Source: a virus
Lineage: Duplodnaviria; Heunggongvirae; Uroviricota; Caudoviricetes
Virus record (IMG/VR): IMGVR_UViG_2700989274_000006
Location: 1 to 33,280 of that record
Direction: 5' to 3' (one strand)
Length of the DNA stretch: 33,280 nucleotides
Position numbers and translations under genes: made by a program. The notes under the pieces are model-generated. The model was not told the DNA's origin. It saw only the letters and a list, made by a program, of their open reading frames with translations, and made no database searches. Position 1 is the stretch's first letter, and each line of letters starts with the position of its first letter. Below, piece after piece: positions 1 through 31,604 of this stretch.

Positions 1-1326
1 ATGGCGCTTTCAAGACAAAAATTTACCTTCGAAAGACTTCGCAGATTCACCTTACCGGAAGGGAAAAAACAAACTTTTCTTTGGGATGCAGATGTAACAA
101 CCCTGGCATGCCGAGCAACTAGCGGAGCAAAAGCCTTTGTATTCCAAAGCGTATATGCGGGGAAAACCCTTCGCATGACTATTGGCAATATTAACGACTG
201 GAAGATTGATGATGCGAGAGCCGAGGCAAGACGGATACAAACATTGATCGATACAGGGATAGATCCACGAGTTGCTAAGGCTGTAAAAATCGCAGAAGCA
301 GAATCCCTGCAGGCAGAATCACGTAAAACAAAAGTGACTTTCTCCGTCGCCTGGGAAGACTATCTTCAAGAATTGAGAACCGGTATCAGTGCAAAAACTA
401 AACGCCCATATTCTACTCGATACATTGCCGATCACATTAACTTGTCCAGTCGTGGAGGCGAAAGTAAAAAAAGAGGCCAAGGCCCGACTTCGGCTGGACC
501 ATTGGCTAGTTTGCTCAACCTGCCGTTATCGGAGCTAACCCCAGATTACATAGCAGCGTGGCTGAGTACAGAAAGGCAAAATAGACCTACCGTCACTGCT
601 CACGCTTATCGCCTACTACGTGCTTTCATCAAATGGAGTAATTATCAGAAAAAATATCAAGGGATCATTCCTGGCGATCTGGCACAAGATTACAACGTAA
701 GAAAAATGGTTCCCGTGTCAGCGAGTAAAGCTGATGATTGCCTGCAAAAGGAACAACTAAAAAGCTGGTTTAGTGCCGTGCGTAGCCTCAATAATCCTAT
801 TGCATCGGCCTATCTCCAAGTACTTTTGCTCACTGGTGCTCGGCGTGAAGAAATTGCGTCGCTTCGCTGGTCAGACGTAGATTTCAAATGGTCAAGCATG
901 CGAATTAAAGACAAGATCGAAGGTGAACGTATCATCCCTCTCACTCCTTATGTTTCTGAATTGTTAAATGTACTAGCGCAATCCCCAAATTCTGACGTAA
1001 ATAAGGAGGGTTGGGTTTTCAGAAGTAACAGTAAAAGTGGCAAAATTATTGAGCCGCGTTCAGCGCACAACAGAGCGTTAGTGCTGGCTGAGTTACCACA
1101 TATCAGCCTTCACGGTTTACGTCGTAGTTTTGGTACTTTGGCCGAGTGGGTTGAAGTTCCCACTGGTATTGTTGCTCAAATTATGGGACACAAACCCAGC
1201 GCTCTTGCCGAAAAACACTATCGCCGTCGTCCGTTAGATCTGTTACGAAAATGGCACGAGAAAATTGAGACATGGATCTTAAATGAAGCAGGTATTACCA
1301 TAAAAAACAACGTTGATATGCGTTGA
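1..1326 (+). CDS. Tyrosine site-specific integrase (P4/CP4-57-like island integrase)
   Basis: 441 aa ORF; conserved catalytic-domain motifs LLLTGARREEIASLRWSDVDF, HGLRRSF and a C-terminal HxxY-type region (MGHKPSALAEKHY); gene starts at window position 1, so the att site or tRNA target would lie upstream, outside the window. Confidence 0.9.
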   Translation: MALSRQKFTFERLRRFTLPEGKKQTFLWDADVTTLACRATSGAKAFVFQSVYAGKTLRMTIGNINDWKIDDARAEARRIQTLIDTGIDPRVAKAVKIAEAESLQAESRKTKVTFSVAWEDYLQELRTGISAKTKRPYSTRYIADHINLSSRGGESKKRGQGPTSAGPLASLLNLPLSELTPDYIAAWLSTERQNRPTVTAHAYRLLRAFIKWSNYQKKYQGIIPGDLAQDYNVRKMVPVSASKADDCLQKEQLKSWFSAVRSLNNPIASAYLQVLLLTGARREEIASLRWSDVDFKWSSMRIKDKIEGERIIPLTPYVSELLNVLAQSPNSDVNKEGWVFRSNSKSGKIIEPRSAHNRALVLAELPHISLHGLRRSFGTLAEWVEVPTGIVAQIMGHKPSALAEKHYRRRPLDLLRKWHEKIETWILNEAGITIKNNVDMR

Positions 1327-1442
1327 TTCCATTAAAAATCAACATATTACAAAATATCATCAACTATTGATCAAGATAGATTTTCATGTATCGTAATACA
1401 CAGTTTAGTCAATGATACAGCAACTACACAGGAGATAAGCCA

Positions 1443-1883
1443 ATGGCAACCCCAGCAACTGTATCCATAGAACCCACTCTGGCAGCTATCAGAGCTCGCT
1501 GGTGTATTAATTCAAGTAAAACAACTCAATCCTTTAACGATCCTGCGTCCATGGAAGAGGTTGTCGAGTATCTCAAAGGAACATACTCAGCTCTTCGCAA
1601 GTCTGTCGCATGCGCCAAACTGAAAATTTTACATCTTAAACAAAGAATGCAAAATGCTACTAACTTTCTCGCGCGTCTGATGTCATGTAAAAATCAGGCA
1701 TCCAGATCGCATCACAGTACGGCTAAATCAGCTAAAAGTGCCTTATCATCAGATTCAGGTGATGGTAGTGACCCCGACCCCGAGCCCGAAACGTTTCCTT
1801 CTGCCTTCATTACTACCCCTACTAATTCAATAATGCTTAAAGCTTTCTTTGCCAATATCTCAATCACTGAGGTGGCAAAATGA
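1443..1883 (+). CDS. Hypothetical protein with acidic Ser/Asp/Pro-rich low-complexity tail
   Basis: 146 aa ORF preceded by AGGAGA about 8 nt upstream; its stop overlaps the alpA-like start (ATGA); no recognisable domain. Confidence 0.4.
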   Translation: MATPATVSIEPTLAAIRARWCINSSKTTQSFNDPASMEEVVEYLKGTYSALRKSVACAKLKILHLKQRMQNATNFLARLMSCKNQASRSHHSTAKSAKSALSSDSGDGSDPDPEPETFPSAFITTPTNSIMLKAFFANISITEVAK

Positions 1884-2104
1884 GCGCATTCAAACTCCCG
1901 GATACATCTCAATCACAGCTCATTTCAACAGCTGAGTTAGCTAAAATCATTAGCTACAAATCTCAAACCATTCGTAAATGGCTTTGTCAGGACAAATTGC
2001 CTGAGGGGCTACCTCGCCCAAAACAAATCAATGGCCGCCATTACTGGTTACGTAAAGATGTCCTCGATTTTATAGATACATTTTCTGTACGAGAAAGTCT
2101 GTAA
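1880..2104 (+). CDS. alpA: AlpA-family phage/island transcriptional regulator (excisionase-like HTH)
   Basis: 74 aa; pattern LISTAELAKIISYKSQTIRKWLCQDKLPEGLPRPKQINGRHYWLRKDVLDFI matches the AlpA winged-HTH family; its position just downstream of the integrase is as in CP4-57. Confidence 0.65.
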   Translation: MSAFKLPDTSQSQLISTAELAKIISYKSQTIRKWLCQDKLPEGLPRPKQINGRHYWLRKDVLDFIDTFSVRESL

Positions 2105-2222
2105 TAAATTACAGATTTAATTTTATTGATTTATAGCGATGTTGCCCCGAGAAAAATGGGGCAACACTGAGAAATTTCAGATAGTAGTTTTATATTGAGA
2201 TAACAAAGAGGTTTCCTTAAAA

Positions 2223-3077
2223 ATGTCTAATAGTGTTACTAATTTTGAGATGAGCAGCGTTCTACCAGGAAAAAAACCTTGTCAAGGCAAAAACAATGAG
2301 TCACAGGTAGTACAGACTACTCCCATAAAAAAACACTCAGTCACGTTCAAAAATCAATCTTCATTAGGAGTAATTGATCATTATGCCAGACTAACAAATA
2401 AATCTCACTCTTCCGTAATAGCGGAAGTTGTGGATTTGGCTATCCCTATATTAGAAAAATGCAATCGTCATAACTGGTCAATAAATGAAATAAAAAATGA
2501 CCTGTTAAAGTTCTCTATAAAAGAAAGCATCAATCGAAGCCGAGGTAAAACAGAAGTAACTCTGGAAGAGTACTGTTCGTTAATCTGGAAAACGAACATC
2601 ATGAGTCCATTAAAAATCCCCATTGCAGATTACTTTCAACTGAACGCTAATGATGAATTCATGGGGAAAGATGAAAAAACAGTTATACGTGAAAGGCTAT
2701 CCTCGCTGAGGGAAAATTACGATATGGAAAAAGCCATTTACATTTACAATCAACGACATTTTAATGTAAAGCATCAAAGTGTCTCAGGATATTCAAACAT
2801 TATTCTTATTCATAGAACAACCTTTGAGGATTATTACTTTGATGTCGGGCAGACTCTACTCTTGTCAACATCCCAATTAATTATATTCGGGATAAATGAA
2901 GTTCTTAGAAGAAAGGGGATTGTTATGCCTTATCCGGTTGTTTGTTGGATTGATATTTACCATGTCAATGAGATGGTGGTTATGCTGCCAGTGATCCGTA
3001 AAACAGATGTTTCCAACCGTGTTAATGCACCGGATGACATCATTATAAACCCATACTCACAGGAGAGCAGAACCTAA
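2223..3077 (+). CDS. Hypothetical protein with N-terminal ribbon-helix-helix-like segment
   Basis: 284 aa ORF in a markedly AT-rich stretch; the segment KHSVTFKNQSSLGVIDHYARLTNKSHSSVIAEVVDLAI has the beta-strand plus two-helix pattern of Arc/CopG RHH domains; C-terminal ~200 aa unassigned. Confidence 0.45.
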   Translation: MSNSVTNFEMSSVLPGKKPCQGKNNESQVVQTTPIKKHSVTFKNQSSLGVIDHYARLTNKSHSSVIAEVVDLAIPILEKCNRHNWSINEIKNDLLKFSIKESINRSRGKTEVTLEEYCSLIWKTNIMSPLKIPIADYFQLNANDEFMGKDEKTVIRERLSSLRENYDMEKAIYIYNQRHFNVKHQSVSGYSNIILIHRTTFEDYYFDVGQTLLLSTSQLIIFGINEVLRRKGIVMPYPVVCWIDIYHVNEMVVMLPVIRKTDVSNRVNAPDDIIINPYSQESRT

Positions 3078-3103
3078 GAGGTAACAAAGAAGGACAAACA
3101 ATT

Positions 3104-3802
3104 ATGAGAGGTAAAATACTACTTTACCACTCAAAGTATCGCTGGCAATCACGCTCTATTTTTGGTTATTTTTTATACAAAATAACATTATTCAGGTATC
3201 AAAAAATAATTTATGACACCGGAGTGCATCAGATGCGTTCATTTTTTTACACCATATGCAGTAGCGAACAGCAAGAAAGCATTACAGATCATCACTCACT
3301 TGCTGAGATATGCCAAAAATTTAATATTCTACCTGAACATGTTGTGATCGAGCAGGTAGATATTAAAGAGGTTGTTTCAGAGCAACGTTTACTCAGACAA
3401 TTGATTCATCATGAAATGAACCGGCAGGACACGCTTGTCATTCCAGATCTAAGCTGTCTTGGCAGAACTGTGGAGGACTTACAGAATATTTTATTTTTTT
3501 GCCTTCAAAAAGAAATGTTTATCTACAGCTACCATCCAGCTTCAAGGATAGAGCCTTCTGCTGAAAGTTGCTTGTCTTTTTTGATTGCTCGTCAGGATAC
3601 GATTGACATTCACAATCTGAAATCAACTAAAAGCCGATATCGACATGTTAAGAAGAAATTAGGACGAAAGGAGGGAAGCAAATACCGACGTGATATCACA
3701 ATACTTAAGAAAGGTGGATTTACTCAGGCTGAGATTGCAAAGAAATTGAGTATCAGTTTATCGACTGTGAAGCGGCACTGGAATAACGGAATCATCGGTT
3801 AA
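3104..3802 (+). CDS. Serine-recombinase (resolvase)-like protein with C-terminal HTH, probably catalytically degenerate
   Basis: Segment YTICSSEQQ ... LVIPDLSCLGR aligns with resolvase YARVSTSQQ ... LVKKLDRLGR but lacks the Arg equivalents (R8 to I, D67-R68 to S-C); C-terminal HTH GFTQAEIAKKLSISLSTVKRH; alternative start at 3233 (MRSFFYT, GGAG upstream). Confidence 0.5.
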   Translation: MRGKILLYHSKYRWQSRSIFGYFLYKITLFRYQKIIYDTGVHQMRSFFYTICSSEQQESITDHHSLAEICQKFNILPEHVVIEQVDIKEVVSEQRLLRQLIHHEMNRQDTLVIPDLSCLGRTVEDLQNILFFCLQKEMFIYSYHPASRIEPSAESCLSFLIARQDTIDIHNLKSTKSRYRHVKKKLGRKEGSKYRRDITILKKGGFTQAEIAKKLSISLSTVKRHWNNGIIG

Positions 3803-3904
3803 TTCCAGAAGCTAATTGCAGAGTAACTTTTTAACAGCCATCACAGGCTGGGGCTACCTTCGTCTCAAATTTAGATGTTGGATAGGTATTATAATGGCAT
3901 TGTG

Positions 3905-4063
3905 TACTCTTACTACCTGTATTCACCAGTAAGAGTAGTAATCAGATCAGTATATCCGTACTAAGATCTGATACCAGTATATACCGACAACAGTGACCAG
4001 GAATAGCCCTGCCTGTATGGCATCCCTGTACGGTCTGCTATAGACCGTAGGACCAAATACAGG
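3905..4063. promoter_or_regulatory. Cluster of inverted repeats immediately upstream of the YfjJ-like gene (candidate operator or origin-like structure)
   Basis: 9-bp IR tactcttac (3905-3913) / gtaagagta (3929-3937); nested dyad cctgtat (4012-4018) ... tacggtc (4029-4035) / gaccgta (4043-4049) ... atacagg (4057-4063); direct repeats of cagtatat(a/c)ccg at 3948-3990. Confidence 0.3.
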
Positions 4064-4071
4064 TATATATT

Positions 4072-4698
4072 ATGAAAACATATCAAGGTACTCATGGAGT
4101 ACATATCCTCGAATATCAGATCAAGATTAAAAAATTATTATGTTATTTGACTAACCGTTACCCCAGGTTAACGGCGGTACGTGTCGATCTGCATTATCCG
4201 AAGATAGTCGATAACGGAGACAATATCTGCTGTTTCCCTAATCTTGAACCAGGGGTGATATCCCGAATGCGTGATTCCCTCAGAGCTAAACTGGAGGCTG
4301 ACCGTACCCGTAAGGAGCGTGAAGGTAAACGCATCTACCGTTGCCCTTTATTTATTATATGGGCGAAAGAGTATTCTGAATCAGGTAAATGCCACTATCA
4401 CATTTGCCTGTTGTTCAACAAAGACGCTTACTACCACCTCGGGGATTACGATCAGCACGATAACCTGAGAGGGATGATTACGGGAGCGTGGTACAGCGCC
4501 CTGAGACTGGAGAGAGACGATCACCCAGGTCTGGTCCATTTTCCTGATAACTGTAAGTACGTGCTGGATACCAATAATGCTGACTTCCAGCATAACTACC
4601 AAGCGCTGTTAACCCGACTGGATTACCTCACCAAAGTCGAAAGCAAAGTGTTTGGTGAAGGAGACCGTAACTTCGGCTGTAGCCAAATCGATCTGTAA
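4072..4698 (+). CDS. YfjJ/YagK-like protein (inovirus Gp2-type family)
   Basis: 208 aa; recalled similarity to the CP4-57 YfjJ / CP4-6 YagK family (PRLTAVRVDLHYP, CHYHICLLFNKDAYYHLG); position after int-alpA is as in CP4-57; family assignment is from memory, not a search. Confidence 0.5.
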   Translation: MKTYQGTHGVHILEYQIKIKKLLCYLTNRYPRLTAVRVDLHYPKIVDNGDNICCFPNLEPGVISRMRDSLRAKLEADRTRKEREGKRIYRCPLFIIWAKEYSESGKCHYHICLLFNKDAYYHLGDYDQHDNLRGMITGAWYSALRLERDDHPGLVHFPDNCKYVLDTNNADFQHNYQALLTRLDYLTKVESKVFGEGDRNFGCSQIDL

Positions 4699-4707
4699 GT
4701 CGGCAAT

Positions 4708-4737
4708 GGCCTTCTCTTTGTGGGAAGGCCTATTTTA
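4708..4737 (+). terminator. Rho-independent terminator downstream of the YfjJ-like gene
   Basis: GGCCTTC (4708-4714), 9-nt loop, GAAGGCC (4724-4730), followed by TATTTTA. Confidence 0.55.
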
Positions 4738-4785
4738 CGTCAGAGTTCAATAATATAACCAGCAGATAACCTGCCCCCAGGATCT

Positions 4786-5577
4786 TCAATTTGGTGTGAT
4801 TTTTCCACTTTCAGTCATGATAGCGATTGCTTCGTCGATAGTCTGTGTTGTAAAGAGCGAGTTTTCCCTACAGTCCTTGCGAATCACCTTCCTGTTTTTT
4901 TGCACAGAAATGTTCTCGCACCAAGCTAATGTTTCGGCGGCATGCTTTTCTTCCATGCTAATGTCCAAAAAAGCGAGGCGGCTATCAAGGGATTGCATAT
5001 CCTCATTGACAATTGAAGGACTGGATTCTAGGAGGTTCAAACGGTTTTCAACATCGGCAACCTTGCCTTTCACCTGTGAGACGTCTTCCACCAATTTTTC
5101 ATGTCTGTGGATAGCATCAGCAAGTGCTCGTGAGTTTTGGGCCAATATTTCAGCCATTTGCGCGAGGGCAGATCCTTTTGCTTCTGGCGGTGGTGGATAT
5201 ACTCCATGTTTAGTCAACGATGGTATGACCTCATGGAATAACCATTTTTGAAAGCGCTTACCAGCCGCGCTTCGGTCACTCGACATAACTCGATACAAAC
5301 CTGGTTGGGTGACGAAGATCTCTTTCTGACCTTCAAAAACACCATTTTCAGCATCTGTAGTAATATACTCATCGGGGTCAAGAGCCTGTAATTGCGCCCT
5401 GATTATTCCAGCCATCGATTTTACTGTGTAATCAGCGTTGATTTCTCTATTTTCTTTATTCAGCGTGATTAAAACATCTCGTAGTGAGATATATAGAATC
5501 TCACCAAGTATCAATGTTCTTAGATCACTTTCACCAGTCTCACCACGGTAACATATCTTGGTCAGGTTACTATTCAT
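4786..5577 (-). CDS. BRO-N domain protein (phage antirepressor-like)
   Basis: 263 aa; N-terminal Bro-N signature QPGLYRVMSSDRSAAGKRFQKWLFHEVIPSLTKHGVY; coiled-coil-like C-terminus; GAGGA 4-5 nt upstream of the ATG. Confidence 0.6.
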   Translation of the reverse strand: MNSNLTKICYRGETGESDLRTLILGEILYISLRDVLITLNKENREINADYTVKSMAGIIRAQLQALDPDEYITTDAENGVFEGQKEIFVTQPGLYRVMSSDRSAAGKRFQKWLFHEVIPSLTKHGVYPPPPEAKGSALAQMAEILAQNSRALADAIHRHEKLVEDVSQVKGKVADVENRLNLLESSPSIVNEDMQSLDSRLAFLDISMEEKHAAETLAWCENISVQKNRKVIRKDCRENSLFTTQTIDEAIAIMTESGKITPN

Positions 5578-5632
5578 TGATCCTCACATCGCAAAGTATA
5601 GGCACATTCAAATCAGTATCTTTTTTCCTGTG

Positions 5633-5665
5633 CTGTTCTGAGGTGAGTATATCACCTCAGAACAG
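5633..5665. repeat. Perfect 14-bp inverted repeat with 5-nt loop
   Basis: ctgttctgaggtga (5633-5646) / gtata / tcacctcagaacag (5652-5665); lies between the 3' end of the methyltransferase-helicase-T5orf172 operon and the BRO-N gene start; no U-tract on either strand. Confidence 0.5.
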
Positions 5666-5691
5666 GTGGCCAAATTCGGTGTGTCACTTCA

Positions 5692-6870
5692 CTATGCCTT
5701 CACCAGTTTCGCAGACATGGGGTCATAAACATACCCAATGATGCTACCATCCTTAATACGTGCAACAGCCTCATCGATAACGAATAACGGAACGAGAAAC
5801 CATTCCTCGGGCTGTACTGGATGGCCGAAACGGTCGTTAATGGTAATGTTAAGCCTTGCGGGTGCAAACAACCTGTGAAACAGGTTTTCCATCCGGGTGC
5901 GGTTGATGCCTGCAAGCTTGTATGAAGCTACTACCTCGACCTTCGCTAACAGATAGGTGGAATCGTGTTCCGCATTGGCAATACGCGCCTCTACTTTGCC
6001 GCCAGTCACTCCAATCTTGTGAATGACATCACGATGTTCAGCTACATAAGGGTTATCAGATAGCGAACGCAACACATAAATGGTGCCACTTTCTAGATCG
6101 CTCTCTTCTAGAGCATCGCTGAATAAAGGCCCCATGTCTGGATCGGTAATTCGGCGTGCTGTTTCGTCTTTATACAAAGCACGAACCAGTGACAGCCGAA
6201 GTAGGTTGCTTTCCGTACCATTCGAGTAAATGACACGCAGTCGAGCATCTTTCTTCCCCTGTGGCGAATCGAACTCTTCACCTTCCTCAGCCACATAAGC
6301 CGTTTGACCATCCAGGATGAACCAATGGCCCACTTCAATCGTTGCATACTGTCCAAAAGGTCGGGTCACTCTTAACCCTGAACTTAGATCACTGCGCACC
6401 TGTTCAAATAGCGGTTTGAATGTATCAAAATCCTCGCACGGCTTGCGATCCGCGATCCCTTGTACAGCACGCTTTTCGGAGCTAGCACGAACATGACGCA
6501 AGACTGTGATATCGTCCTCGCTGGTAACATCCGCCAGTTCGGCAGCCAAATTATCGATATCGATAAATTCGTCCGCTGACTCCGCTCCCTCCCCCCCTCC
6601 GGCCAACAAGCCCTGATGATCCAGCGGCTCTAGCAAGGCACGGCAGTCTGGGAGACTGCGTAGCCGGTCGAGCCGCACTGCATAGAGGCGCTCGAAGATC
6701 TCACGATCTTCGCCGTGTTGCGGCGCACGTCCATGTTGGTCAGCGAAGCGCTGGATTTCCTCAAAACCTGCGATGATGCGTTCCTCGCTGGCTGGACGTC
6801 CTTTTTTCTTCTCCGGTGGTGCAAATTCGGCAAGTTCTGCCGCCAAATCGTCTAAATCAGAATTACTCAT
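5692..6870 (-). CDS. T5orf172 (GIY-YIG-like) domain protein, third gene of the candidate defense operon
   Basis: C-terminal motifs GTIYVLRS, HKIGVTGGKVEARI, MENLFHRLF, EEWF match the T5orf172 family pattern; preferred start at 6870 (MSNSDLDD, GGAGGG 5 nt upstream, 8-nt overlap with the helicase stop); the longest ORF extends to 6936. Confidence 0.6.
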   Translation of the reverse strand: MSNSDLDDLAAELAEFAPPEKKKGRPASEERIIAGFEEIQRFADQHGRAPQHGEDREIFERLYAVRLDRLRSLPDCRALLEPLDHQGLLAGGGEGAESADEFIDIDNLAAELADVTSEDDITVLRHVRASSEKRAVQGIADRKPCEDFDTFKPLFEQVRSDLSSGLRVTRPFGQYATIEVGHWFILDGQTAYVAEEGEEFDSPQGKKDARLRVIYSNGTESNLLRLSLVRALYKDETARRITDPDMGPLFSDALEESDLESGTIYVLRSLSDNPYVAEHRDVIHKIGVTGGKVEARIANAEHDSTYLLAKVEVVASYKLAGINRTRMENLFHRLFAPARLNITINDRFGHPVQPEEWFLVPLFVIDEAVARIKDGSIIGYVYDPMSAKLVKA

Positions 6871-8908
6871 AATGTCCCTCCGCCCTAAAACGCATAAACG
6901 CGGCTGCACCTTCTGCAAGGTGCTTTTCCCAGGCATCCGGCGAAGTTAACGATGGGAGGCGTCCACGTTCACGTTTGAATTCAGCAGCACGCTTGGCGAT
7001 CACTTTGGCATCTTCAGGCGTGATCGAGGTACGCTTGGCCGAGATGGCCGCCGCGACCTGCTTCAAGCTATCTTCGCTCATTGTCTTAGCAAGGATGGCG
7101 TAGGCTTCACCAAAGGGATTGATGCGGTCGATAAGATCTATGTCTAAATCGCGTACGTCCATCGCAAAGCGACGCACTCCGTCAATAAGGGCAGTATTGA
7201 GCGTCCCATCGTTCTCGCCGTTGACAATACGCTTAGCCTGCTGCGTGAGATTAAGGGCGGCAATAGCGTGCTGACGCACAGCCTCCTGATCTTCAGCGCC
7301 AAGTTCAGGGTACTTTTCTTTGATGATCTTCCCCATACGAACCTGTGTTAATTCTTCAGGAATGAGCTCTTCGTCGAACAGTCCACGTTCGATGGCGGGC
7401 TTATCTTGCACAAAAGCCGCGATCACTTCATTTAAATCTTCCTGGCAGATGCGTGCCGCCTCTTTGCTCCTGGGCTCGGCAAGTCCCTTAATCTCGATTT
7501 GATACGTCCCTGTCTGCTCATTAACACCAAAATTGCAGTTATCCGGGTCATACCCTCCTTCACCATAATCAAAACCTGGGGTCGGGCCGCTTTCTGGGTT
7601 CTTAGGCTTGAACTCGAAGCGCGGAGCCAATACTTGCTCCATCAGCAGGCTTGCCGCGATGGCTTTCAAGGTATCGTTGACTGCCTCGGTGACTGCCCCC
7701 TCTACAGCATCCGGCTCGGCGATCAGGTTAGTAAACCTTGCGCGGGTTTTACCCGGCGCGTCGCGAGTGGCGCGACCGATGATCTGCACGATCTCAGTCA
7801 GGCTGGCACGGTAACCAACGGTCAACGCATGTTCGCACCAGATCCAGTCGAAACCTTCCTTCGCCATACCAAGTGCAATAATGATGTCCACATAATCACG
7901 GTCTGTCTTCATTTCTGCAGCACGGAGACTTTCCTGAATCTTGCCTTGGCTGGTTGGGTCCACCAGGTCAGCAATACGTAACACGCGTCCATCGAGGCAT
8001 TTGACTAGCTGAAAACCAGTCACAGGATCCGCTCCTTGCCAATCGCCAAGCTCGCCGAGAATGTGCTCCACCTCTTTGATTTTATCCTTCGTGCTCTCGC
8101 GCGAATTGACGTTGGGAATATGGATAATGGTCTTCTTGTCAGGATCGAGTACATTGAGGATGTCATCGACGTAGGAGCCACTGTAGAAGAAGTAGCCGAT
8201 ATCGAGTTGCTTGAGGTATTCGTAGCCGTTAAGTTGTTCGTAGTAGGTGTAGGTGACGGTATCGAACCTGGACTCATCCTGAGGAGCCAACACGGCCTCC
8301 GCATCACCCCGGAAGTAGGATCCGGTCATGGCAACGATGTGCGTCTTGTCCCGCGCGATAAACTGCCCCAGCTGCTGACCAAGCTTATTATCCGGGTTAG
8401 CTGACACATGGTGGAATTCATCGACCGCGATCAGGCGATCGTCAAACGCTTCTATACCGTAGGCATCGACCGCGAAGCGAAAGGTTGCGTGTGTGCAAAC
8501 AAGCACCTTGTCACTACTTTCAAGAAAAGAGCCAAAAGATCTTACCTTGCCACCGTTGTCGTTACCGGGCGCGTTGCACAGGTTCCACTTAGGTTCGACA
8601 TGCCAATCAGTCCAGAATCCAAACTGCGATAGCGGTTCATCGTTGAAGCTCGCGCCGATAGATTTTTCCGGCACAACGATGATTGCCTGTTTAATCCCTT
8701 GATTTTCGAGTTTGTCGAGTGCGACGAACATCAGAGCACGACTCTTACCGGAGGCGGGCGGCGACTTGATGAGAAGATATTGTTCTCCGCGCTTCTCATA
8801 GGCCCTTTCTTGCATAGGCCGCATCCCAAGAGCATTAGCCTTGGTCGATGCTCCGCTGCGTGAGTAGGTAACGGAAACGGACGGTACTGATTTAATCTTG
8901 TTGCTCAT
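6863..8908 (-). CDS. SF2 DExH-box helicase/translocase (type III restriction Res-like ATPase)
   Basis: 681 aa; Walker A SPPASGKS, motif II VDEFHH, motif III MTGS, motif VI QIIGRATR; ~250 aa C-terminal extension of unknown function; start overlaps the methyltransferase stop (ATGA). Confidence 0.8.
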   Translation of the reverse strand: MSNKIKSVPSVSVTYSRSGASTKANALGMRPMQERAYEKRGEQYLLIKSPPASGKSRALMFVALDKLENQGIKQAIIVVPEKSIGASFNDEPLSQFGFWTDWHVEPKWNLCNAPGNDNGGKVRSFGSFLESSDKVLVCTHATFRFAVDAYGIEAFDDRLIAVDEFHHVSANPDNKLGQQLGQFIARDKTHIVAMTGSYFRGDAEAVLAPQDESRFDTVTYTYYEQLNGYEYLKQLDIGYFFYSGSYVDDILNVLDPDKKTIIHIPNVNSRESTKDKIKEVEHILGELGDWQGADPVTGFQLVKCLDGRVLRIADLVDPTSQGKIQESLRAAEMKTDRDYVDIIIALGMAKEGFDWIWCEHALTVGYRASLTEIVQIIGRATRDAPGKTRARFTNLIAEPDAVEGAVTEAVNDTLKAIAASLLMEQVLAPRFEFKPKNPESGPTPGFDYGEGGYDPDNCNFGVNEQTGTYQIEIKGLAEPRSKEAARICQEDLNEVIAAFVQDKPAIERGLFDEELIPEELTQVRMGKIIKEKYPELGAEDQEAVRQHAIAALNLTQQAKRIVNGENDGTLNTALIDGVRRFAMDVRDLDIDLIDRINPFGEAYAILAKTMSEDSLKQVAAAISAKRTSITPEDAKVIAKRAAEFKRERGRLPSLTSPDAWEKHLAEGAAAFMRFRAEGHYE

Positions 8909-11712
8909 GCATTAGTTCTCACTTTACGCTTCTTGCCTTTGGCCGGTGCAGCAGAAGCGGCCATCTTTATATAAAGATCAAATAGCTTTTCAAGCCGCTC
9001 TGTATCATTCTTAAAGCGACGGCCGATGTAGATGCGCTCCAGTACTTCATCATTGCGATCATGCGCAGCCCGCAGATCAGTAGGCATGTTAGCAGGATCG
9101 TATAGGTCCGCGATGGTCGCGGGAAAATGATGCTCACGCGCCAGAAGTATGTCCTCCGCGCAGCGTGTGAGGTCAGCCTTGTTTTTTTCTGTGAGTTTTG
9201 GTACTGGGAAGGTGTTCCAGCCGAGGGTGTTAGAGTAGCGGTAGCGTGTTTCCAATTTTCCGCAGATGGTGGCGATCCAAACCAGGTGTAGACGAGATGC
9301 AATGAGCGCAAGATTCCAGAGCGGAGCGTCGTAGAGAGCAAAGGCGAGGTTACTGACTACCGAATGATTATCAATCAGTCCAACAGGAAGATACTCGCGC
9401 CCTTCCGATGAAACCCCCGGTAGAATCAGCGTGTGCTTGCCACCGTGATACATTTCGCGAAACTGATGAGCCCGTGATGCTAACTCATTCGTACCAGCAT
9501 CTTTACTTTTGAGCCGCATTTCCCGAACGCCATCAATCCGACCCCGAATAGACGCAATCTCCAAAGCTTGCGGCAATTTTACATCAGGGATCCAGAGGCA
9601 CTTACGTACTACTCCGCGAATAAACTCGGCAGAACCATAGATGCGCCGAAGAAATGTCTCTTCATCCTGCTTGCTCAAACCGAGCGAAACCGCGTCATCC
9701 GCCGATAACAAAAGATTTCCCCCATCGACGGGCATGTTGCCAAAAGACATATCCGGCAGACCCGATATGCTCTTGCGCTGGCCCTCGACTACAACATCCT
9801 CACCAACACTCAGATAGGGCGTGATGTTTGTCGCCTCGCGTACAGTAGTTTGGCCATTGCGGTCCAAGTCGTAAAGTAGCCTTGTCTTACTCACATCCGT
9901 AGATAGGCCGACGATAGCGACTGTTACACCCGCGTTGTGTGCAGCAAGGTTCGTCCATTTGAAGCTGGAGTGCGCGAAGCGAATGTGGGAGCCACATTTG
10001 AAAATTGCTGGCCACAGGATAGGAACAATTCGGCCTTGACAGATAGAGTTGGTGCTAACAAAAGCCGAATCCGTTGGTGTGGCTTGCGCGTAGGCAGCAG
10101 CTTTCATGAACCAACCACCAACATAATCGATTTGTTTAGACGAAATACCATAAGGTTCAAATACCGAAGCCAAATCCGCTTTCTGCTCTTTAGTCTGCGT
10201 TTGGCTACCTTTGTAAGGTGGGTTACCACAGATGTATGTCTCCCCACCTTCGTTCTGAAAGCCAATCTCTGCTTGACCGAGAGGCGTCTCAAAGAGGTTA
10301 TCTGCCTGCAACTTCACGCCAATTCCGGACGGAGGGCAAACGCTCAACCAATCAATCCGCAATGCGTTGCCACATGTAATCCAATTATCATTACGCAGAG
10401 GAAGAAACTCGGCCAGTGCAAGTTTTAGTCCCCGGTACACCACATCGCACTGATACTCAGCAATAACTAGCGCGAGACGGGCAATCTCCGCAGGGAAATC
10501 TCGTATTTCGATCCCGCGAAAGTTGGTAAGAGGGATGTCAGAGGCATTATCCATCTCGCCACGTCGTCGATTAATCTCGGCCTCGATGGCTCGCATTTCC
10601 TTGTACGCAATCACTAAGAAGTTGCCAGATCCACATGCTGGGTCGAATACGCGGATTCGGGCCATACGCTTGCGCAGATTGAGCAGCATGCGCGGATTGT
10701 CACCGGCTTCATCCAGTTTCGCCCGCAGTTCGTCGAGGAATAGTGGGTTAAGCACCTTGAGTATATTGGGGACACTAGTGTAATGCATTCCCAACTCACC
10801 ACGCTCTTCGTCTTCGGTAATGGCCTGAATCATCGAGCCGAATATGTCTGGGTTGATTTTGGTCCAATCCAGATTGCCAACATGTAGAAGATAGGATCGC
10901 GCAATACGGCTGAAGCGCGGTACCTCCTCACTTCCCGAGAAAAGAGCGCCGTTTACATAAGGAAACTCAGCAGCCCAACGCGGGATACCGACAACACTTC
11001 GCTCATCGCGTGGGGTGTTCATTGCACGAAACAACGTGGCGATGACCTCGTGCAAATTAGAAGCGTCGCGCTCACTCATCTGCGCAATAGTGTCAGTAAA
11101 GCGCCCCTTGCCTATAAATATGTCAGTGTCTTCGGCGAAAAAGCAGAAAATTAGACGCGCCATGAACTTGTTCATGTCATGACGACGCCCCGAAGTACCC
11201 CATTCAGGATTGTCTTTTAACAGTTCGACGTACAGGCGGTTCAAACGGCTAGTAGCACGGATGTCAAAGGCGTCTTCGCTGATCTGCCGAACAGTGCTGA
11301 TACCTGCCAATGGCAAAAAGAAGCCGAAGTGATCGGGAAAGTCTTTAAAGGCACAAGCCACAGTCTGACCACTGTTGAGGTCCTCGGCTTCAAAGTATTT
11401 GCCGTCCGTGGCAAGGATGAATTTCGCCTTGGCCTTGCCTGTTGCCGGGCTGGCCTTAAGTGCAGCCAGCATCTGTGTGACTTGGCCCCCTTCACTGGCC
11501 AGAATGTGGATGTTGTTTGTCTGAAGAACACCACCCAAGTCGGACTTATTCGATGCCCCGGCGCGCAGACGTTTGATGGTCGTTTCCTTGTTACCAAAGG
11601 CTTCAAGAAAAGCATAAGGAAACTCTATAGGATCAAAGGGTTGTTCCGCAAGATCCGTGATGGCTTGCTCAATTTCTACGGCGTTCATTTGCGTACAGTT
11701 CTCCATTGGCAT
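8905..11712 (-). CDS. MmeI-family (type IIG/IIL-like, YeeA-like) N6-adenine DNA methyltransferase, apparently without endonuclease motif
   Basis: 935 aa; SAM motif I FDPACGSGNFLV, catalytic motif IV GNPPY; further MmeI-family blocks MARLIFCFFAEDTDIF, LGMHYTSVPNILKVLNPLFLDEL; no PD-(D/E)xK seen in the N-terminal ~120 aa. Confidence 0.85.
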   Translation of the reverse strand: MPMENCTQMNAVEIEQAITDLAEQPFDPIEFPYAFLEAFGNKETTIKRLRAGASNKSDLGGVLQTNNIHILASEGGQVTQMLAALKASPATGKAKAKFILATDGKYFEAEDLNSGQTVACAFKDFPDHFGFFLPLAGISTVRQISEDAFDIRATSRLNRLYVELLKDNPEWGTSGRRHDMNKFMARLIFCFFAEDTDIFIGKGRFTDTIAQMSERDASNLHEVIATLFRAMNTPRDERSVVGIPRWAAEFPYVNGALFSGSEEVPRFSRIARSYLLHVGNLDWTKINPDIFGSMIQAITEDEERGELGMHYTSVPNILKVLNPLFLDELRAKLDEAGDNPRMLLNLRKRMARIRVFDPACGSGNFLVIAYKEMRAIEAEINRRRGEMDNASDIPLTNFRGIEIRDFPAEIARLALVIAEYQCDVVYRGLKLALAEFLPLRNDNWITCGNALRIDWLSVCPPSGIGVKLQADNLFETPLGQAEIGFQNEGGETYICGNPPYKGSQTQTKEQKADLASVFEPYGISSKQIDYVGGWFMKAAAYAQATPTDSAFVSTNSICQGRIVPILWPAIFKCGSHIRFAHSSFKWTNLAAHNAGVTVAIVGLSTDVSKTRLLYDLDRNGQTTVREATNITPYLSVGEDVVVEGQRKSISGLPDMSFGNMPVDGGNLLLSADDAVSLGLSKQDEETFLRRIYGSAEFIRGVVRKCLWIPDVKLPQALEIASIRGRIDGVREMRLKSKDAGTNELASRAHQFREMYHGGKHTLILPGVSSEGREYLPVGLIDNHSVVSNLAFALYDAPLWNLALIASRLHLVWIATICGKLETRYRYSNTLGWNTFPVPKLTEKNKADLTRCAEDILLAREHHFPATIADLYDPANMPTDLRAAHDRNDEVLERIYIGRRFKNDTERLEKLFDLYIKMAASAAPAKGKKRKVRTNA

Positions 11713-11993
11713 GTGACCGCCCTGCTGCTACTGGTGTGCAGTGAACTCATGTCATATCCTAGGTTTTCTTGGAAATTTTTGACCGTAAGTTTAACAGAAT
11801 AGAACCCAGCGCTGTAGCTGATTCAGTCTCAGATCCACGTTTCAGAAAGCCCTATTATGTATTTATGGCGAGAATTTTAGCATTGAGATATTTTCGATAA
11901 AATATACATATTTTCAGCCAATTAAAGACTGCTAAATTCATGGTATATGAGACGCTCGCATGTGAGTAACTTCCGTTCTTATTTCTGGTTTTC

Positions 11994-13316
11994 TTAAAAC
12001 GTATTAAGGTTGCACCGAATATGGTTTTCCCCGCTGACCCTGACCCGATTGACTGTCCAGTCAGCTATGACGTCAAGCACATGACGAAGGTAGCTTTCTG
12101 GATCCACGCCGTTTAGTTTGCACGTCCCGATCAGACTGTACATCAGCGCTACACGCTCACCTCCGTGGTCTGAGCCGAAGAACAGCCAGTTTTTTCTCCC
12201 CAAACTGACCATCCGCAGCGCATTTTCAGCGATGTTGTTATCGGCTTCTGTCCAGCCATTGCCTGCATAGTGCGTCAGGGCCGGCCACTGGTTAAGGGCG
12301 TACGCGAACGCTTTCGCCAGCTCTGAGTGTCGTGACAGGGTGTTCATCTTTTCACGCAGCCAGCTTTCCAGGGATTTCAGCAGCGGTTTCGCTTTCTGCT
12401 GACGTTCAGCAAGACGTTGCTCCGCCGGCATTCCCCTTATTTCCGCCCCGATGGCATACAACCCGCCGATACGCTTCAGGGCATCCTCCGTCAGCGCCGA
12501 CGGCGTGCGGGCGTACACATCGTGGATTTTACGGCGGGCGTGAGCCCAGCAGGCGGCTTCCGTTATCTGGCCACCGCGGTACAACTCGTTGAATCCTGCA
12601 TACGCATCCGCCTGCAGCACTCCCCTGAAGCCGGCAAGATGGGTCTGCGGGTGGATGGCTTTTCTGTCCGGGCTGTAAGCGAACCACACCGCCGGTGCGA
12701 CTGCTGACCCGGCGTTGCGGTCATCACGAACGTACTTCCACAATCGCCCGGACTTCGTCTTCTTATTGCCCGACAGCAGCATCTGGACCGGGGTATCATC
12801 GACATGGAGTTTGCCGTCGCTCAGGACATAGCCCCGAAGCGCCTCCTCCAGCGGTGACAGCAGCCTGCAGCATGCATCCACCCAGCCCGACAGGAGGGAG
12901 CGGCTCAGTTCCACACCCTGGCGGCTATATATTTCAGACTGGCGGTACAGCGGGGTATGCTCTGCATACTTTGAGCCCAGTACCCGGGCCAGCAGCCCCG
13001 CTCCGGCGATACTCCGCTCGATGGGACGTGAAGGCGCGGGGGCCTGCACGATAGCGTCGCATTTTGTACAGGCGTGTTTTTCCCGCACGGTCCGGATAAC
13101 CCGGAAGGCGCTGCGCATCAGCTCCAGCTGTTCAGCAGTATCTTCACCCAGCCAGCGCAGTGAATCGCCACAGTCCGGGCAGCATGATGCCGCCGACAAC
13201 AGCCGTTTTTCGTCACGAGGGAGTGATTCGGGGAACGGTTTACGGGTGCGGGTCTGGCGAAGCGACCACGCTCCAGCCGTTTGGTCAGCAGACACAGCCT
13301 GTCGCCGGTAGACCAC
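11994..13316 (-). CDS. tnpC: IS66-family transposase TnpC (N-terminus likely truncated)
   Basis: 440 aa; conserved IS66 TnpC blocks LPRDEK, CPDCGDSLRWLGEDTAEQLEL, IVQAPAPSRPIERSIAG, HTPLYRQSEI; only ~26 aa precede the LPR motif whereas family members usually carry a longer N-terminal zipper region. Confidence 0.8.
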   Translation of the reverse strand: MVYRRQAVSADQTAGAWSLRQTRTRKPFPESLPRDEKRLLSAASCCPDCGDSLRWLGEDTAEQLELMRSAFRVIRTVREKHACTKCDAIVQAPAPSRPIERSIAGAGLLARVLGSKYAEHTPLYRQSEIYSRQGVELSRSLLSGWVDACCRLLSPLEEALRGYVLSDGKLHVDDTPVQMLLSGNKKTKSGRLWKYVRDDRNAGSAVAPAVWFAYSPDRKAIHPQTHLAGFRGVLQADAYAGFNELYRGGQITEAACWAHARRKIHDVYARTPSALTEDALKRIGGLYAIGAEIRGMPAEQRLAERQQKAKPLLKSLESWLREKMNTLSRHSELAKAFAYALNQWPALTHYAGNGWTEADNNIAENALRMVSLGRKNWLFFGSDHGGERVALMYSLIGTCKLNGVDPESYLRHVLDVIADWTVNRVRVSGENHIRCNLNTF

Positions 13317-13486
13317 AGCAATTTTACCTGACTGCCACTGCAGCCCCGGAAGATGAAGACTTGGCCGGACATCGGGTCGTCTTTCAGTGCCGTCTGCACT
13401 TTTGCCGCCAGCCCGTTGAAGCCGTTGCGCATGTCGGTGATACCGGCAACCAGCCAGATTTTAGTGCCTGCAGGAAGATTTATCAT
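13118..13486 (-). CDS. tnpB: IS66 Orf2 (TnpB)
   Basis: N-terminal WLVAGITDMRNGFNGLAAKVQ ... KRLERGRF is the IS66 OrfB signature; the C-terminal tail looks atypical and overlaps the tnpC start by ~200 nt, consistent with a frameshift or deletion. Confidence 0.75.
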   Translation of the reverse strand: MINLPAGTKIWLVAGITDMRNGFNGLAAKVQTALKDDPMSGQVFIFRGCSGSQVKLLWSTGDRLCLLTKRLERGRFARPAPVNRSPNHSLVTKNGCCRRHHAARTVAIHCAGWVKILLNSWS

Positions 13487-13866
13487 ACAGTCCCTCGCAT
13501 CAGTTCGCGCAGGACAGTGGTGATGAGTTCAGTTGAGGGATGAGTCAGTGTTATATCTCCGCCCCGACATTTTATGTGACAGGCAGTCTGAGGTGAACAG
13601 GATGGCGGTTCGGGCGTTGGGGGAGATGGCTCTGCCCGAAATTGCACGGGTATGAGAGCAGGAAGCGACGATGCGTTTTTCCGTGGGTGGCAGACCCGCC
13701 CTTCACGTTGCCAGAGCCTTATCCATTTAAAGAGCAGGTTGTCATTGACATCATGTTGTCGGGCCAGCGCAGCAACACTTCCTTCTTTTTCAAGTGCCAG
13801 CCTGACCAGTTCCATTTTAAACTCAGGGGAATATCGTTTTCGGGGAAGTCTTTCTTTGGCGCGCAT
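13483..13866 (-). CDS. tnpA: IS66 Orf1 (TnpA, HTH protein)
   Basis: 127 aa; RKRYSPEFKMELVRLALEKEGSVAALARQHDVNDNLLFKW is an IS66/IS3-type N-terminal HTH; stop overlaps the tnpB start (ATGA). Confidence 0.8.
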   Translation of the reverse strand: MRAKERLPRKRYSPEFKMELVRLALEKEGSVAALARQHDVNDNLLFKWIRLWQREGRVCHPRKNASSLPALIPVQFRAEPSPPTPEPPSCSPQTACHIKCRGGDITLTHPSTELITTVLRELMRGTV

Positions 13867-14089
13867 TAGGTGTCCACCTGCAAATTAAGTGGGGGCTTAA
13901 GTTACAGGATAGTGGTTTCAGAGCCAGACGTTTTTGAGACAACGCTTACTCTAAACCCAAGCGTAAATGTCTATTATTGGCAAAATACCACCAGCCAACA
14001 TGAGCTGTGATGTAAAGTTGACACTGCTACAGTTACATGAGCCTGTTTATATTCTAAATAAATTCAGATAGATATTATCTCCGTGAATC

Positions 14090-14128
14090 CCCCGCCTCCC
14101 TGACCGGAGCGCGGGAATTTTTGTTTTT
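14090..14128 (+). terminator. Hairpin plus T-tract; candidate late-operon terminator (tR'-like) upstream of the lysis region
   Basis: GCCCGCCTCC ... GGAGCGCGGG imperfect stem followed by AATTTTTGTTTTT; a TTGACA hexamer lies at 14018-14023, but no convincing -10 was found. Confidence 0.35.
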
Positions 14129-14252
14129 CACGCTGAGAACCCTGTATGAATAAAACTGATGGCCTTCAGGCCCTGGAAAAACCGCTGGCGTCGCTTCCCG
14201 ATACGCTTCGCCAGCTTATTCTTGAACGTATTCAGAATCTGACCCACTACGA

Positions 14253-14262
14253 NNNNNNNNNN
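14253..14262. other. Assembly gap (10 N)
   Basis: Run of n characters; interrupts a plus-strand ORF that begins MNKTDGLQALEKP at 14146. Confidence 0.99.
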
Positions 14263-14281
14263 GCCACCGACGGCATTGCGG

Positions 14282-14695
14282 TCAGAAAAAGATGATATTG
14301 AATCGCCCATTGAAAAACTGGAGGGCAGCGTCGCTGATCTGAATAAAAAATTGTCGGTGCTGATTCCTTCTGAAGATGAAAAAAAACGCCGCGATGAGCA
14401 GTTTGCGGCGTTTTACGATTATTGCATTGAAGTTACTCTCGCAGGAATTTTGTGAAGATTTTTGAGGAGGGTAAATCTCTTCAGTAAGCTTAATGGCGGA
14501 CGCTGCAATTAATTCAGGAAGGTCCGCAAGGTCATCTGTCAGTGGATATGATGAAAAATCGGCGGCAGTTCTGTTAAGAAGCGCTTTAACTAATTCCTTT
14601 TCCTTCTCCGGCAACAAGTTGATTAGAGCTACGACTGCTTGCCTGAGTGCGATTAAATCAGCAAAAGTTTGTTTAGGTAGATTTGTGTAATCCAT
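14282..14695 (-). CDS. Hypothetical protein (extent uncertain)
   Basis: ORF with AGAGG about 9 nt upstream of the ATG at 14695; its C-terminal half overlaps a plus-strand reading frame that crosses the gap, so the true coding extent is ambiguous. Confidence 0.3.
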   Translation of the reverse strand: MDYTNLPKQTFADLIALRQAVVALINLLPEKEKELVKALLNRTAADFSSYPLTDDLADLPELIAASAIKLTEEIYPPQKSSQNSCESNFNAIIVKRRKLLIAAFFFIFRRNQHRQFFIQISDAALQFFNGRFNIIFF

Positions 14696-14808
14696 AGTCG
14701 CCTCTGTGTTTATCAGATTGACATCCTCCTCCCGCCAGTGCCCATCACTGGTGAGGTAAGATTTAACATATCCGGGGATTTGAAGCCGATAAATCCTGAT
14801 AAATATCC

Positions 14809-15836
<1,028 letters not shown>

Positions 15837-16087
15837 ATTAATATTAAATCGGATTATTTTTAGCGCTGAATGTGAAATTTAAATAAAAAGGACTCTTCCA
15901 TGAGTCAAAATCCTTGAAATCTTAAGGGTAAGATAAAAGGTCATTAGACAGAATGACACGTTTTATTAATAAATAAAGCTATTGTTTCATTCGTGTGTTT
16001 TTCTTTACAAAAGTAATCCTTGCTATGGTTGGTTAATCATGCGTTAATGGTGTTCTGGTTTGTTACAAAATTATCTGAAGCAGTCAT

Positions 16088-16096
16088 TGTTATAAT
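16088..16096 (+). promoter_or_regulatory. Extended -10 element (TGtTATAAT), candidate promoter for the csp gene
   Basis: tgttataat at 16088-16096, about 105 nt upstream of the csp ATG, which would give the long 5' UTR typical of cold-shock genes; no good -35. Confidence 0.3.
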
Positions 16097-16199
16097 TTTA
16101 TTATTTGTACCTCTTGAGATTTCCTTGTTGGTTTTTCTCTCTGATATTTTTTTTCGGACCATTCTGCCCAAGGGCTAACTTCTTCAAAAGGTAATAATG

Positions 16200-16412
16200 A
16201 TGTCTAACAAAATGACTGGTTTAGTGAAATGGTTTAACCCTGAAAAAGGTTTTGGTTTCATCACGCCGAAAGATGGTAGCAAAGATGTGTTTGTCCATTT
16301 CTCAGCTATTCAGAGCAACGATTTCAAAACGTTAACTGAGAATCAGGAAGTCGAATTTGGTATTGAGAACGGACCTAAAGGCCCCGCGGCTGTTCATGTT
16401 GTGGCACTTTGA
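16200..16412 (+). CDS. cspI: CspA-family cold-shock protein (CspI-like, prophage-borne)
   Basis: 70 aa; [38 protein letters not shown] contains the RNP1/RNP2 motifs; the sequence matches my recollection of E. coli Qin-prophage CspI. Confidence 0.85.
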
Positions 16413-31594: not shown

Positions 31595-31604
31595 NNNNNN
31601 NNNC
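31595..31604. other. Assembly gap (10 N)
   Basis: Run of n characters; the sequence after it is unrelated to phage tail genes. Confidence 0.99.

Follow-up and report, generated by a model that had tools for sequence, protein, structure and literature searches.

A single-ended, internally deleted IS66-family remnant upstream of a methyltransferase–helicase–GIY-YIG operon

In a 33,280-nt stretch of viral DNA (IMG/VR record IMGVR_UViG_2700989274_000006; the window), an IS66-family gene trio, tnpA-tnpB-tnpC, lies on the minus strand upstream of a methyltransferase operon. The initial annotation placed a short element at 11966–13948, noted that no target-site duplication flanked it, and proposed that it had taken part in a deletion or rearrangement at an island–prophage junction. 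This raises the question of whether the locus holds an IS66 element with two ends that has reshaped its surroundings, or a decayed copy. We conclude with high confidence that it is an ordinary dead IS66-family fragment, lacking an internal 449 bp and the entire right end.

Extent and gene content of the IS66-family fragment

Elements of the IS66 family are ~2.4–2.7 kb long, have terminal inverted repeats that start 5′-GTAA(GCG) and are flanked by an 8-bp target-site duplication. The fragment occupies 12044–13949 (minus strand), its bounds being the limits of homology (13949 and 12040–12043) to the full-length relatives L002 and L009 and to >25 loci from other Enterobacterales. It is indeed short, at 1,906 bp instead of the ~1.98 kb first estimated, compared with 2,436–2,441 bp in the full-length relatives, which is also the approximate length of the parent. 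The left end had been placed nearly correctly, one base from 13949, but the right end at 11966 was wrong, since homology stops at 12040–12043 and the DNA at 11966 is native. The left terminal inverted repeat (IRL; 13924–13949, minus strand, outer end at 13949, inner limit approximate) reads GTAAGCGTTGTCTCAAAAACGTCTGG... and can be aligned to the left repeats of both L002 and L009 (GTAAGCGTCGTCTGAGTACCGTCTGG). In agreement, the flank homology of the IS-less E. coli ET565 ends exactly at 13950, the base adjoining the IRL. A search of 11700–14252, including the surroundings of 11966–12100, found no inverted-repeat partner for the IRL.

The NCBIfam models for IS66 TnpA, TnpB and transposase all scored above their cut-offs. 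tnpA (13483–13866, minus strand) is an intact ORF of 127 aa, the same length as the L009 TnpA; it matches Pfam HTH_Tnp_1 and overlaps tnpB through the ATGA at 13483–13486. The other two genes are fragments. tnpB (13256–13486, minus strand) retains codons 1–77 of the 115 in L009 and covers positions 2–73 of 101 in the Pfam TnpB_IS66 profile. tnpC (12044–13264, minus strand) retains the equivalent of residues 95–499 of 512, again by residue mapping against L009, and matches zf-IS66, DDE_Tnp_IS66 and DDE_Tnp_IS66_C. Its own start codon is missing; the GTG chosen by the ORF finder at 13316 falls in tnpB-derived sequence. A full IS66 element encodes a complete TnpB of ~115 aa and a complete TnpC of ~510–540 aa, and all three ORFs are reportedly required for transposition. 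The remaining tnpA and tnpC ORFs are predicted to be inactive, and the remnant as a whole would have lost activity.

The nearest full-length kin belong to an ISEc8-like group of Enterobacterales, which includes L002, L009 and the element that RefSeq names ISEc8 in E. coli 536. L002 comes from E. coli ECamp083 (L002 1502–3942; 2,441 bp, duplication GCTTGCGT) and L009 is the copy on the C. freundii plasmid pMH17-012N_3 (L009 1501–3936; 2,436 bp, duplication TGAGAAAC); both have the ends GTAAGCG...CGCTTAC. Several other relatives make up whole repeat contigs of 2,439–2,459 bp. The remnant shares with this group the tnpA-tnpB-tnpC order, the ATGA overlap, an IRL starting GTAAGCG, and the zf-IS66, DDE_Tnp_IS66 and C-terminal domains of TnpC, with 84–91% nucleotide identity over the common parts. 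It is <90% identical to L002 and L009. The search for a parent IS above 90% identity covered 5,426 E. coli genomes, 72,556 plasmids and a single genome for each species; the best matches reached 88–92% at the protein level and ~90.5% at the nucleotide level over tnpB-tnpC (locus L037). By ISfinder convention, the parent would count as an IS of its own or as a borderline isoform, and not as a further copy of any sampled element. In the same search, the best tnpA-tnpB match was to Klebsiella indica (95.6%). The tnpA module is mosaic and is shared by few relatives, namely K. indica at this identity, L009 and L002.

Two lesions and the lost target duplication

A single internal deletion explains both the shortened N-terminus of TnpC and the unusual tail of TnpB. 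It joins tnpB codon 77 to tnpC codon 95 and measures 449 bp against relatives that are at most ~88–91% identical over tnpB-tnpC, not against the true parent. The junction lies at 13256–13264 (CGCTTCGCC|AGACCCGC), with a positional ambiguity of 4–9 nt, and the relatives all hold ~440–458 extra bases here. Indeed, >25 relatives from different genera each align to the remnant in two blocks, at 84–91% identity, with the break at 13250–13264 and ~445 extra bases in the relative. Unlike ISEc8-like elements, the remnant therefore lacks TnpB residues 78–115 and TnpC residues 1–94. The initial annotation had suspected an internal deletion or frameshift from the shortness of TnpC before its conserved block, an atypical TnpB C-terminus and a ~200-nt overlap, and this was borne out: the first 94 of 512 TnpC residues are gone, and past codon 77 the tnpB ORF continues in tnpC sequence, out of frame, until it meets a stop at 13118, overlapping the TnpC ORF by 199 nt (13118–13316). 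When the deleted 449-bp segment was sought elsewhere in the window, in BE2-5, ECC-1470 and ET565 and in one Klebsiella plasmid, nothing beyond chance matches of ≤20 nt turned up.

The second lesion is the 3′ truncation at 12040–12043, where homology to >25 full-length relatives ceases. Compared with ISEc8-like elements, the last 77–85 bp are missing, and with them the final 13 codons of tnpC, its stop codon and the right inverted repeat; the 8-bp duplication is absent too. A search for this missing 3′ end in the window, BE2-5, ECC-1470, ET565 and the Klebsiella plasmid loci likewise returned only chance matches of ≤20 nt. The absence of a flanking 8-bp direct repeat had been noted correctly, and, as had been anticipated, no full-length IS66 with intact ends and such a duplication exists here. 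The original target octamer was probably GGTTTAGA (minus strand; 13950–13957), which adjoins the IRL only.

ET565 indicates what the site looked like without the IS. There, the flank of a GTPase-family gene is continuous to the base adjoining the IRL and is followed by 134 bp without a BLAST match in the window, and then by the upstream DNA of the methyltransferase. The last ~10 bp of the 134-bp stretch align by eye, giving a lost flank of ~125 bp, a figure that is approximate because ET565 is only ~80–85% identical on the methyltransferase side, with an indel. The second copy of the target duplication is absent because it was lost together with the right end and this flank, and the comparison makes it very likely that all three went by local deletion within one intergenic region.

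We propose that a ~2.44-kb ISEc8-like IS66 element inserted once, between the GTPase-family gene and the methyltransferase–helicase–GIY-YIG operon, and later suffered two deletions, in either order. The internal one would have taken the final third of tnpB, the spacer between tnpB and tnpC, and tnpC codons 1–94; the short sequence identity at its junction is consistent with illegitimate recombination. The terminal one would have taken the last ~77–85 bp of the IS, the second target copy and ~125 bp of adjoining intergenic DNA. The outcome would be an immobile scar with a single end, no complete transposase and no full TnpB, inherited and transferred passively with the island module.

The boundary at 12043 and the methyltransferase upstream region

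Native DNA resumes directly beyond the truncation. The region 11713–12039 (minus strand) forms the upstream region of the methyltransferase operon; it is 100% identical in ECC-1470, which has no IS66 here, and ~80–85% identical, across 11966, in ET565, where 12037–11713 is likewise native intergenic DNA. It holds the GTAA at 11966–11969 that had been taken for an IS end, as well as the last 15 codons and the stop codon of the apparent TnpC ORF. The remnant is 331 bp from the start of the longest methyltransferase ORF (11712), not ~250 bp as first estimated.

Simple random deletion would not predict one feature of this boundary: in ECC-1470 a different truncated IS (IS5/ISKpn26-like) abuts the same base, 12043 ± 2. 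To explain that arrangement, 12043–11960 was considered as part of an IS5/ISKpn26-like element and rejected for want of a match. Position 12043 could instead be the defined boundary of a mobile methyltransferase–helicase–GIY-YIG cassette, whose insertion, and not a deletion, truncated the IS66 element; in another lineage the cassette would have landed in an IS5-like element. If true, the mobility of the module would be sequence-directed. Consistent with this, the two truncated ISs are followed by sequence that is 100% identical from the shared base onward, an IS3-family-like end directly follows the GIY-YIG stop codon on the other side of the module, and a third arrangement carries another IS scar at 11926. 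However, the upstream DNA of ET565 is unbroken at 12043 and continues leftward into unique sequence and then into the same GTPase flank. Nor does the missing IS66 3′ end reappear on the far side of the operon, in the window, in BE2-5 or at the plasmid loci, and no terminal repeats or duplication were found at 12043. We consider a cassette boundary improbable, though less so than the alternatives discussed below.

As a weaker variant of the cassette-boundary reading, the operon may have recruited the retained tnpA, or read-through from the remnant, for its expression or regulation. The initial annotation, too, suggested that the IS could affect operon expression. In operon variants that lack IS66 or bear other IS scars, no less than ~215 bp of this upstream DNA is retained, which suggests a native promoter. 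A consensus promoter scan of the minus-strand interval from the remnant to the methyltransferase gave no sigma-70-like site, and only a weak terminator-like hairpin at 11821–11806.

The contig join and the same remnant in other genomes

On the IRL side, the remnant is followed by 303 bp of native island DNA (13950–14252, plus strand), consisting of intergenic sequence and the first 35 codons of the GTPase-family gene (14146–14252), and this flank is 98% identical in ET565 and 99.6% identical in E. coli BE2-5. The gene goes on for 876 nt in BE2-5; in the window it is cut by the contig end. A run of 10 Ns follows at 14253–14262, and it is here, 303 bp from the remnant, that island sequence truly switches to prophage sequence: homology to BE2-5 ends at 14252 and homology to a Qin-like lysis region begins at 14263. 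Across 5,426 complete E. coli genomes, the two sides are nowhere adjacent, nor are those of a second N run at 31594–31603. In complete genomes, the left side runs on into the GTPase gene, and the right side leads to ydfR/essQ in a Qin-like prophage at another place on the chromosome. The neighbouring prophage is almost certainly unrelated to the IS66 element, belonging to another contig joined with 10 Ns.

The proposal that an IS bounded by 11966 and 13948/9 mediated a rearrangement, joining the defence island to the prophage and removing its early genes, must be weighed against this structure. It could draw on the lack of an 8-bp repeat at the ends first inferred, on the GTAA tetranucleotide at 11966 and on the presence of prophage late genes within ~300 bp in the window as given. 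However, 12037–11713, including 11966, is native and present without IS66 in ET565 and ECC-1470, and the 303-bp island flank with the start of the GTPase gene stands between the IRL and the prophage. Moreover, the whole GTPase gene follows the same remnant in 15 complete genomes. We therefore regard this rearrangement as highly unlikely. The IS does not itself separate island from prophage, as had been claimed, and the absent duplication, once read as a sign of IS-mediated deletion, would reflect the local loss described above. Since the two sides of the N run are never adjacent in the 5,426 genomes, IS-mediated loss of prophage early genes is unsupported; the junction is an artefact of the 10-N join and no inference on such a loss should be drawn from the window.

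The same fragment occurs elsewhere. An unbroken deletion junction was found nowhere but in 15 complete E. coli chromosomes and 4 Klebsiella plasmids, as a single copy per replicon. An exact search for the junction in species-representative genomes gave no match, and thousands of other IS66 copies carry the extra ~449 bp. The block 11900–14060, which includes the GTPase-side flank, is 99.5–99.7% identical in the 19 records, and all of them share the flanking sequence, and so one insertion site. Mobilisation of the internally deleted form in trans, as a non-autonomous IS66 derivative whose 3′ loss is specific to this copy, is the least credible reading, because although the IRL and tnpA are intact and full-length IS66 relatives in many E. 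coli genomes could supply proteins, the junction occurs at this one locus in the 19 records, the 3′ truncation and the absence of a right inverted repeat are common to all copies, and the possible helpers are at most ~88–91% identical over tnpB-tnpC.

The single-insertion scar keeps the same surroundings wherever these were compared. E. coli BE2-5 (NZ_CP032986.1, 3673786–3675595) and the Klebsiella plasmids NZ_CP017451.1 and CP067932.1 carry the same two lesions, at 99.5–99.7% identity over the remnant and both flanks. Their annotation places the GTPase gene on one side and the methyltransferase, helicase and GIY-YIG nuclease genes on the other, as in the window, and in the BE2-5 record PGAP calls tnpB and tnpC partial pseudogenes. 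E. coli islands often contain decayed IS copies, and the biological weight of this one is small; its practical value is corrective. It is also a handy marker, indicating that the GTPase-to-GIY-YIG block moved whole between islands on E. coli chromosomes and IncHI1B/IncFIB megaplasmids of Klebsiella. The methyltransferase allele of BE2-5 and the plasmids differs from that of the window, down to 65–90% identity in mid-gene, and the window shares its allele, at 100% identity, with ECC-1470.

Coding content and internal deletion of the IS66 remnant

The feature at 12044-13949 (minus strand, 1,906 bp) is genuine but unremarkable: an IS66-family remnant that is dead, carries an internal deletion and lacks its right end. 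The same remnant is present in public genomes, where it is tagged as pseudogenes, and it is of limited biological importance. The initial annotation described an IS66-family element of insufficient length in which the tail of TnpB is odd and TnpC is short at its N-terminus, and ORFs and domain matches confirmed this. The ORF listing placed three overlapping ORFs on the minus strand within 11994-13866: tnpA (13866..13483, 127 aa; Pfam HTH_Tnp_1 and NCBIfam IS66-like TnpA), a tnpB ORF (13486..13118, 122 aa; TnpB_IS66, profile positions 2-73 of 101 only) and a tnpC ORF (13316..11994, 440 aa from a GTG start; zf-IS66, DDE_Tnp_IS66 and the IS66 C-terminal element). The tnpA and tnpB ORFs share an ATGA overlap (13483-13486).

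All relatives aligned to the remnant as two blocks meeting at 13250-13264, with ∼445 extra bases in the relative; 449 bp are missing relative to L009, a full-length copy from a C. freundii plasmid. At the deletion junction (CGCTTCGCC joined to AGACCCGCACCC), tnpB on the upstream side (...RLERGRFA) meets tnpC on the downstream side (QTRTRKPF...), and a few bases are common to both parental sites. Of the 115 TnpB residues, 77 remain, after which the frame is lost and the ORF continues through tnpC sequence to 13118. What is left of TnpC is equivalent to residues 95-499 of 512; its own start codon is gone, and the GTG at 13316 sits in tnpB-derived sequence. A single 449-bp deletion explains both peculiarities previously ascribed to an internal lesion, i.e. 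the short TnpC N-terminus (LPRDEK preceded by just 26 aa) and the TnpB/TnpC overlap of ∼200 nt.

Ends of the element and history of the insertion site

Two full-length relatives served as comparison standards for the ends: a 2,441-bp copy in E. coli ECamp083 (L002), with the duplication GCTTGCGT on either side, and the 2,436-bp L009 copy, with TGAGAAAC. Both start with GTAAGCG and end with CGCTTAC. The left inverted repeat in the window (GTAAGCGTTGTCTCAAAAACGTCTGG) aligned with theirs and gave 13949 as the outermost base, one beyond the 13948 of the initial annotation. On the right side, homology to both standards ended at 12040-12043, as it did for >25 additional relatives in genera including Lelliottia, Klebsiella, Enterobacter, Serratia, Mixta and Buttiauxella. 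The terminal 77-85 bp of the parent (13 tnpC codons with their stop codon, and the right inverted repeat) are absent. They had no match elsewhere in the window, and no inverted partner of the left repeat was found in 11700-14252.

The right end originally proposed, 11966, instead falls in native DNA that is present in two E. coli strains, ECC-1470 and ET565. Positions 12043-11713 are 100% identical in ECC-1470, which has no IS66 at that site; a 92-bp IS5/ISKpn26-like end fragment (L003 5911-6002; also in CFSAN051542) abuts the same base there. From ∼12037 to 11601, identity with ET565 is 80-85%; in this strain, the GTPase–methyltransferase interval is free of any IS. As ET565 is unbroken across the GTAA at 11966 (AATTTACTCAAAGG versus AAGTTACTCACATG), that GTAA belongs to native DNA and matches only by chance. 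The 15 codons that close the apparent TnpC ORF (RVSGENHIRCNLNTF) are likewise native.

The left flank (14252..13950) is 98% identical to ET565 up to the base touching the inverted repeat; at the insertion point, ET565 reads GGTTTAGA followed by TATCGAAATT, and the window GGTTTAGA followed by GTAAGCG. ET565 then carries 134 bp (5867-6000) without a BLAST match in the window before methyltransferase-side homology begins, although by eye this homology resumes ∼10 bp earlier, near window 12037. The simplest history is that IS66 inserted at GGTTTAGA and that one later deletion would have taken the right end of the IS, the second copy of the duplication and ∼125 bp of flank. Such a deletion accounts for the missing 8-bp repeat without a large rearrangement: the repeat is indeed absent, but the ET565 comparison indicates that a local event suffices.

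The only mildly unusual point of the locus is a coincident breakpoint, since two different truncated ISs (IS66 here, IS5-like elsewhere) abut the upstream DNA at 12043 ± 2. Beyond the breakpoint (12041-12045), ECC-1470 is 100% identical down to window position 1 (100.0% over 1-12043), and the strain therefore carries the ECC-1470 allele plus the IS66 remnant. Two observations speak against a cassette-insertion model: ET565 is continuous across 12043, and the missing IS66 end is absent beyond the operon.

The island–prophage junction

Homology to BE2-5, an E. coli chromosome with the same remnant (NZ_CP032986.1), extends past the IS over 303 bp of native flank, including codons 1-35 of the GTPase gene (14146-14252), and ends exactly at 14252, just before a ten-N run (14253-14262). 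From 14263, the sequence matches a Qin-like cryptic prophage at 99.8% over its lysis genes (ydfR′, rrrQ, rzpQ, cspI), upstream of which complete genomes have ydfR/essQ rather than island DNA. A probe made by fusing the 250-bp segments that flank the run had its halves adjacent in none of 5,426 complete E. coli genomes, 580 of which carried a single half, and the two sides of a second 10-N run (31594-31603) were likewise adjacent in 0 of 5,426. Therefore, at least three draft-assembly contigs have been strung together in the window, and features spanning either run are unreliable. The IS-mediated island–prophage rearrangement put forward in the initial annotation rests on this contig join, 303 bp from the IS, and the junction is thus no evidence for it. 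Overall, that account described the damage largely correctly and erred on the right boundary and the rearrangement.

The Qin-like lysis and cold-shock cluster (14263-16300; ydfR fragment, rrrQ, rzpQ, cspI) is 99.8% identical in ∼200 E. coli genomes. Its contig starts inside ydfR, beside the essQ and IS3 of other genomes, which is compatible with a repeat-induced contig break.

The methyltransferase operon and distribution of the module

The minus-strand operon (5692-11712) encodes a 935-aa methyltransferase, a 681-aa DEAD/DEAH helicase and a GIY-YIG nuclease (414-aa ORF in the window). The methyltransferase matched the PADLOC Type IIG restriction-methyltransferase model (REase_MTase_IIG) end to end (E = 3e-283); the helicase and nuclease had no significant family in PADLOC or NCBIfam. 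The methyltransferase centre (∼9000-10800) is highly variable among carriers (65-90% identity, versus 99-100% for the remnant and flanks), and against the BE2-5 allele is just 65-75% identical or unalignable with flanks at 99%, which suggests specificity-domain swapping.

The remnant lies upstream of the methyltransferase as annotated, at 331 bp from the longest ORF start (11712) or 355 bp from the PGAP start (11688) rather than ∼250 bp. Since it shares the orientation of the operon, read-through is conceivable. The region upstream of the operon is a recurrent IS breakpoint. Upstream DNA is retained to ∼12037 in ET565-type variants (without IS66), to 12043 in ECC-1470-type variants (IS5-like scar) and to 11926 in EBJ003-type variants (another IS scar, ∼70 genomes); its retention in all variants suggests a putative native promoter within ∼215 bp of the methyltransferase gene.

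In E. coli EBJ003 (L005 5003-5998) and ∼70 similar genomes, a related operon is preceded by other IS remnants (a tnpB fragment of IS66 type and a further transposase pseudogene), which abut at the position corresponding to window 11926. In the window, the GIY-YIG stop codon is immediately followed by a stretch beginning TGAAGTGACACACCGAATTTGGCCACCTG (∼5557-5691, minus strand) that is shared with the Klebsiella plasmids and not BE2-5. It presumably resembles an IS3-family terminal repeat, in which case IS scars would flank the operon on both sides.

A 141-bp probe spanning the deletion junction matched in one piece only in 15 complete E. coli chromosomes and four Klebsiella plasmids (IncHI1B/IncFIB type); in thousands of other IS66 copies it was split in two pieces spanning 587-599 bp. 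The remnant is single-copy in all 19 carriers. Identity over 11900-14050 (remnant plus ∼100-140 bp each side) is 99.5-99.7% in the 15 chromosomes, and the remnant alone is 99.5% identical in the four plasmids, in two of which both flanks were checked. BE2-5 and the two plasmids examined closely share the gene order WYL/GTPase genes, remnant, methyltransferase, DEAD/DEAH helicase and GIY-YIG nuclease, and PGAP labels tnpB "missing C-terminus" and tnpC "missing N-terminus" in BE2-5. The remnant is a scar inherited passively within this module, which has passed between chromosomal islands of E. coli and megaplasmids of Klebsiella.

Within this IS66 group, the tnpA module (13475-13949) is mosaic (compared with relatives at loci L010-L037). 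Most relatives with tnpB-tnpC at 85-91% fail to align over tnpA and the left inverted repeat; in Klebsiella indica (L016) tnpA-tnpB is 95.6% identical to the window and tnpC just 88%.
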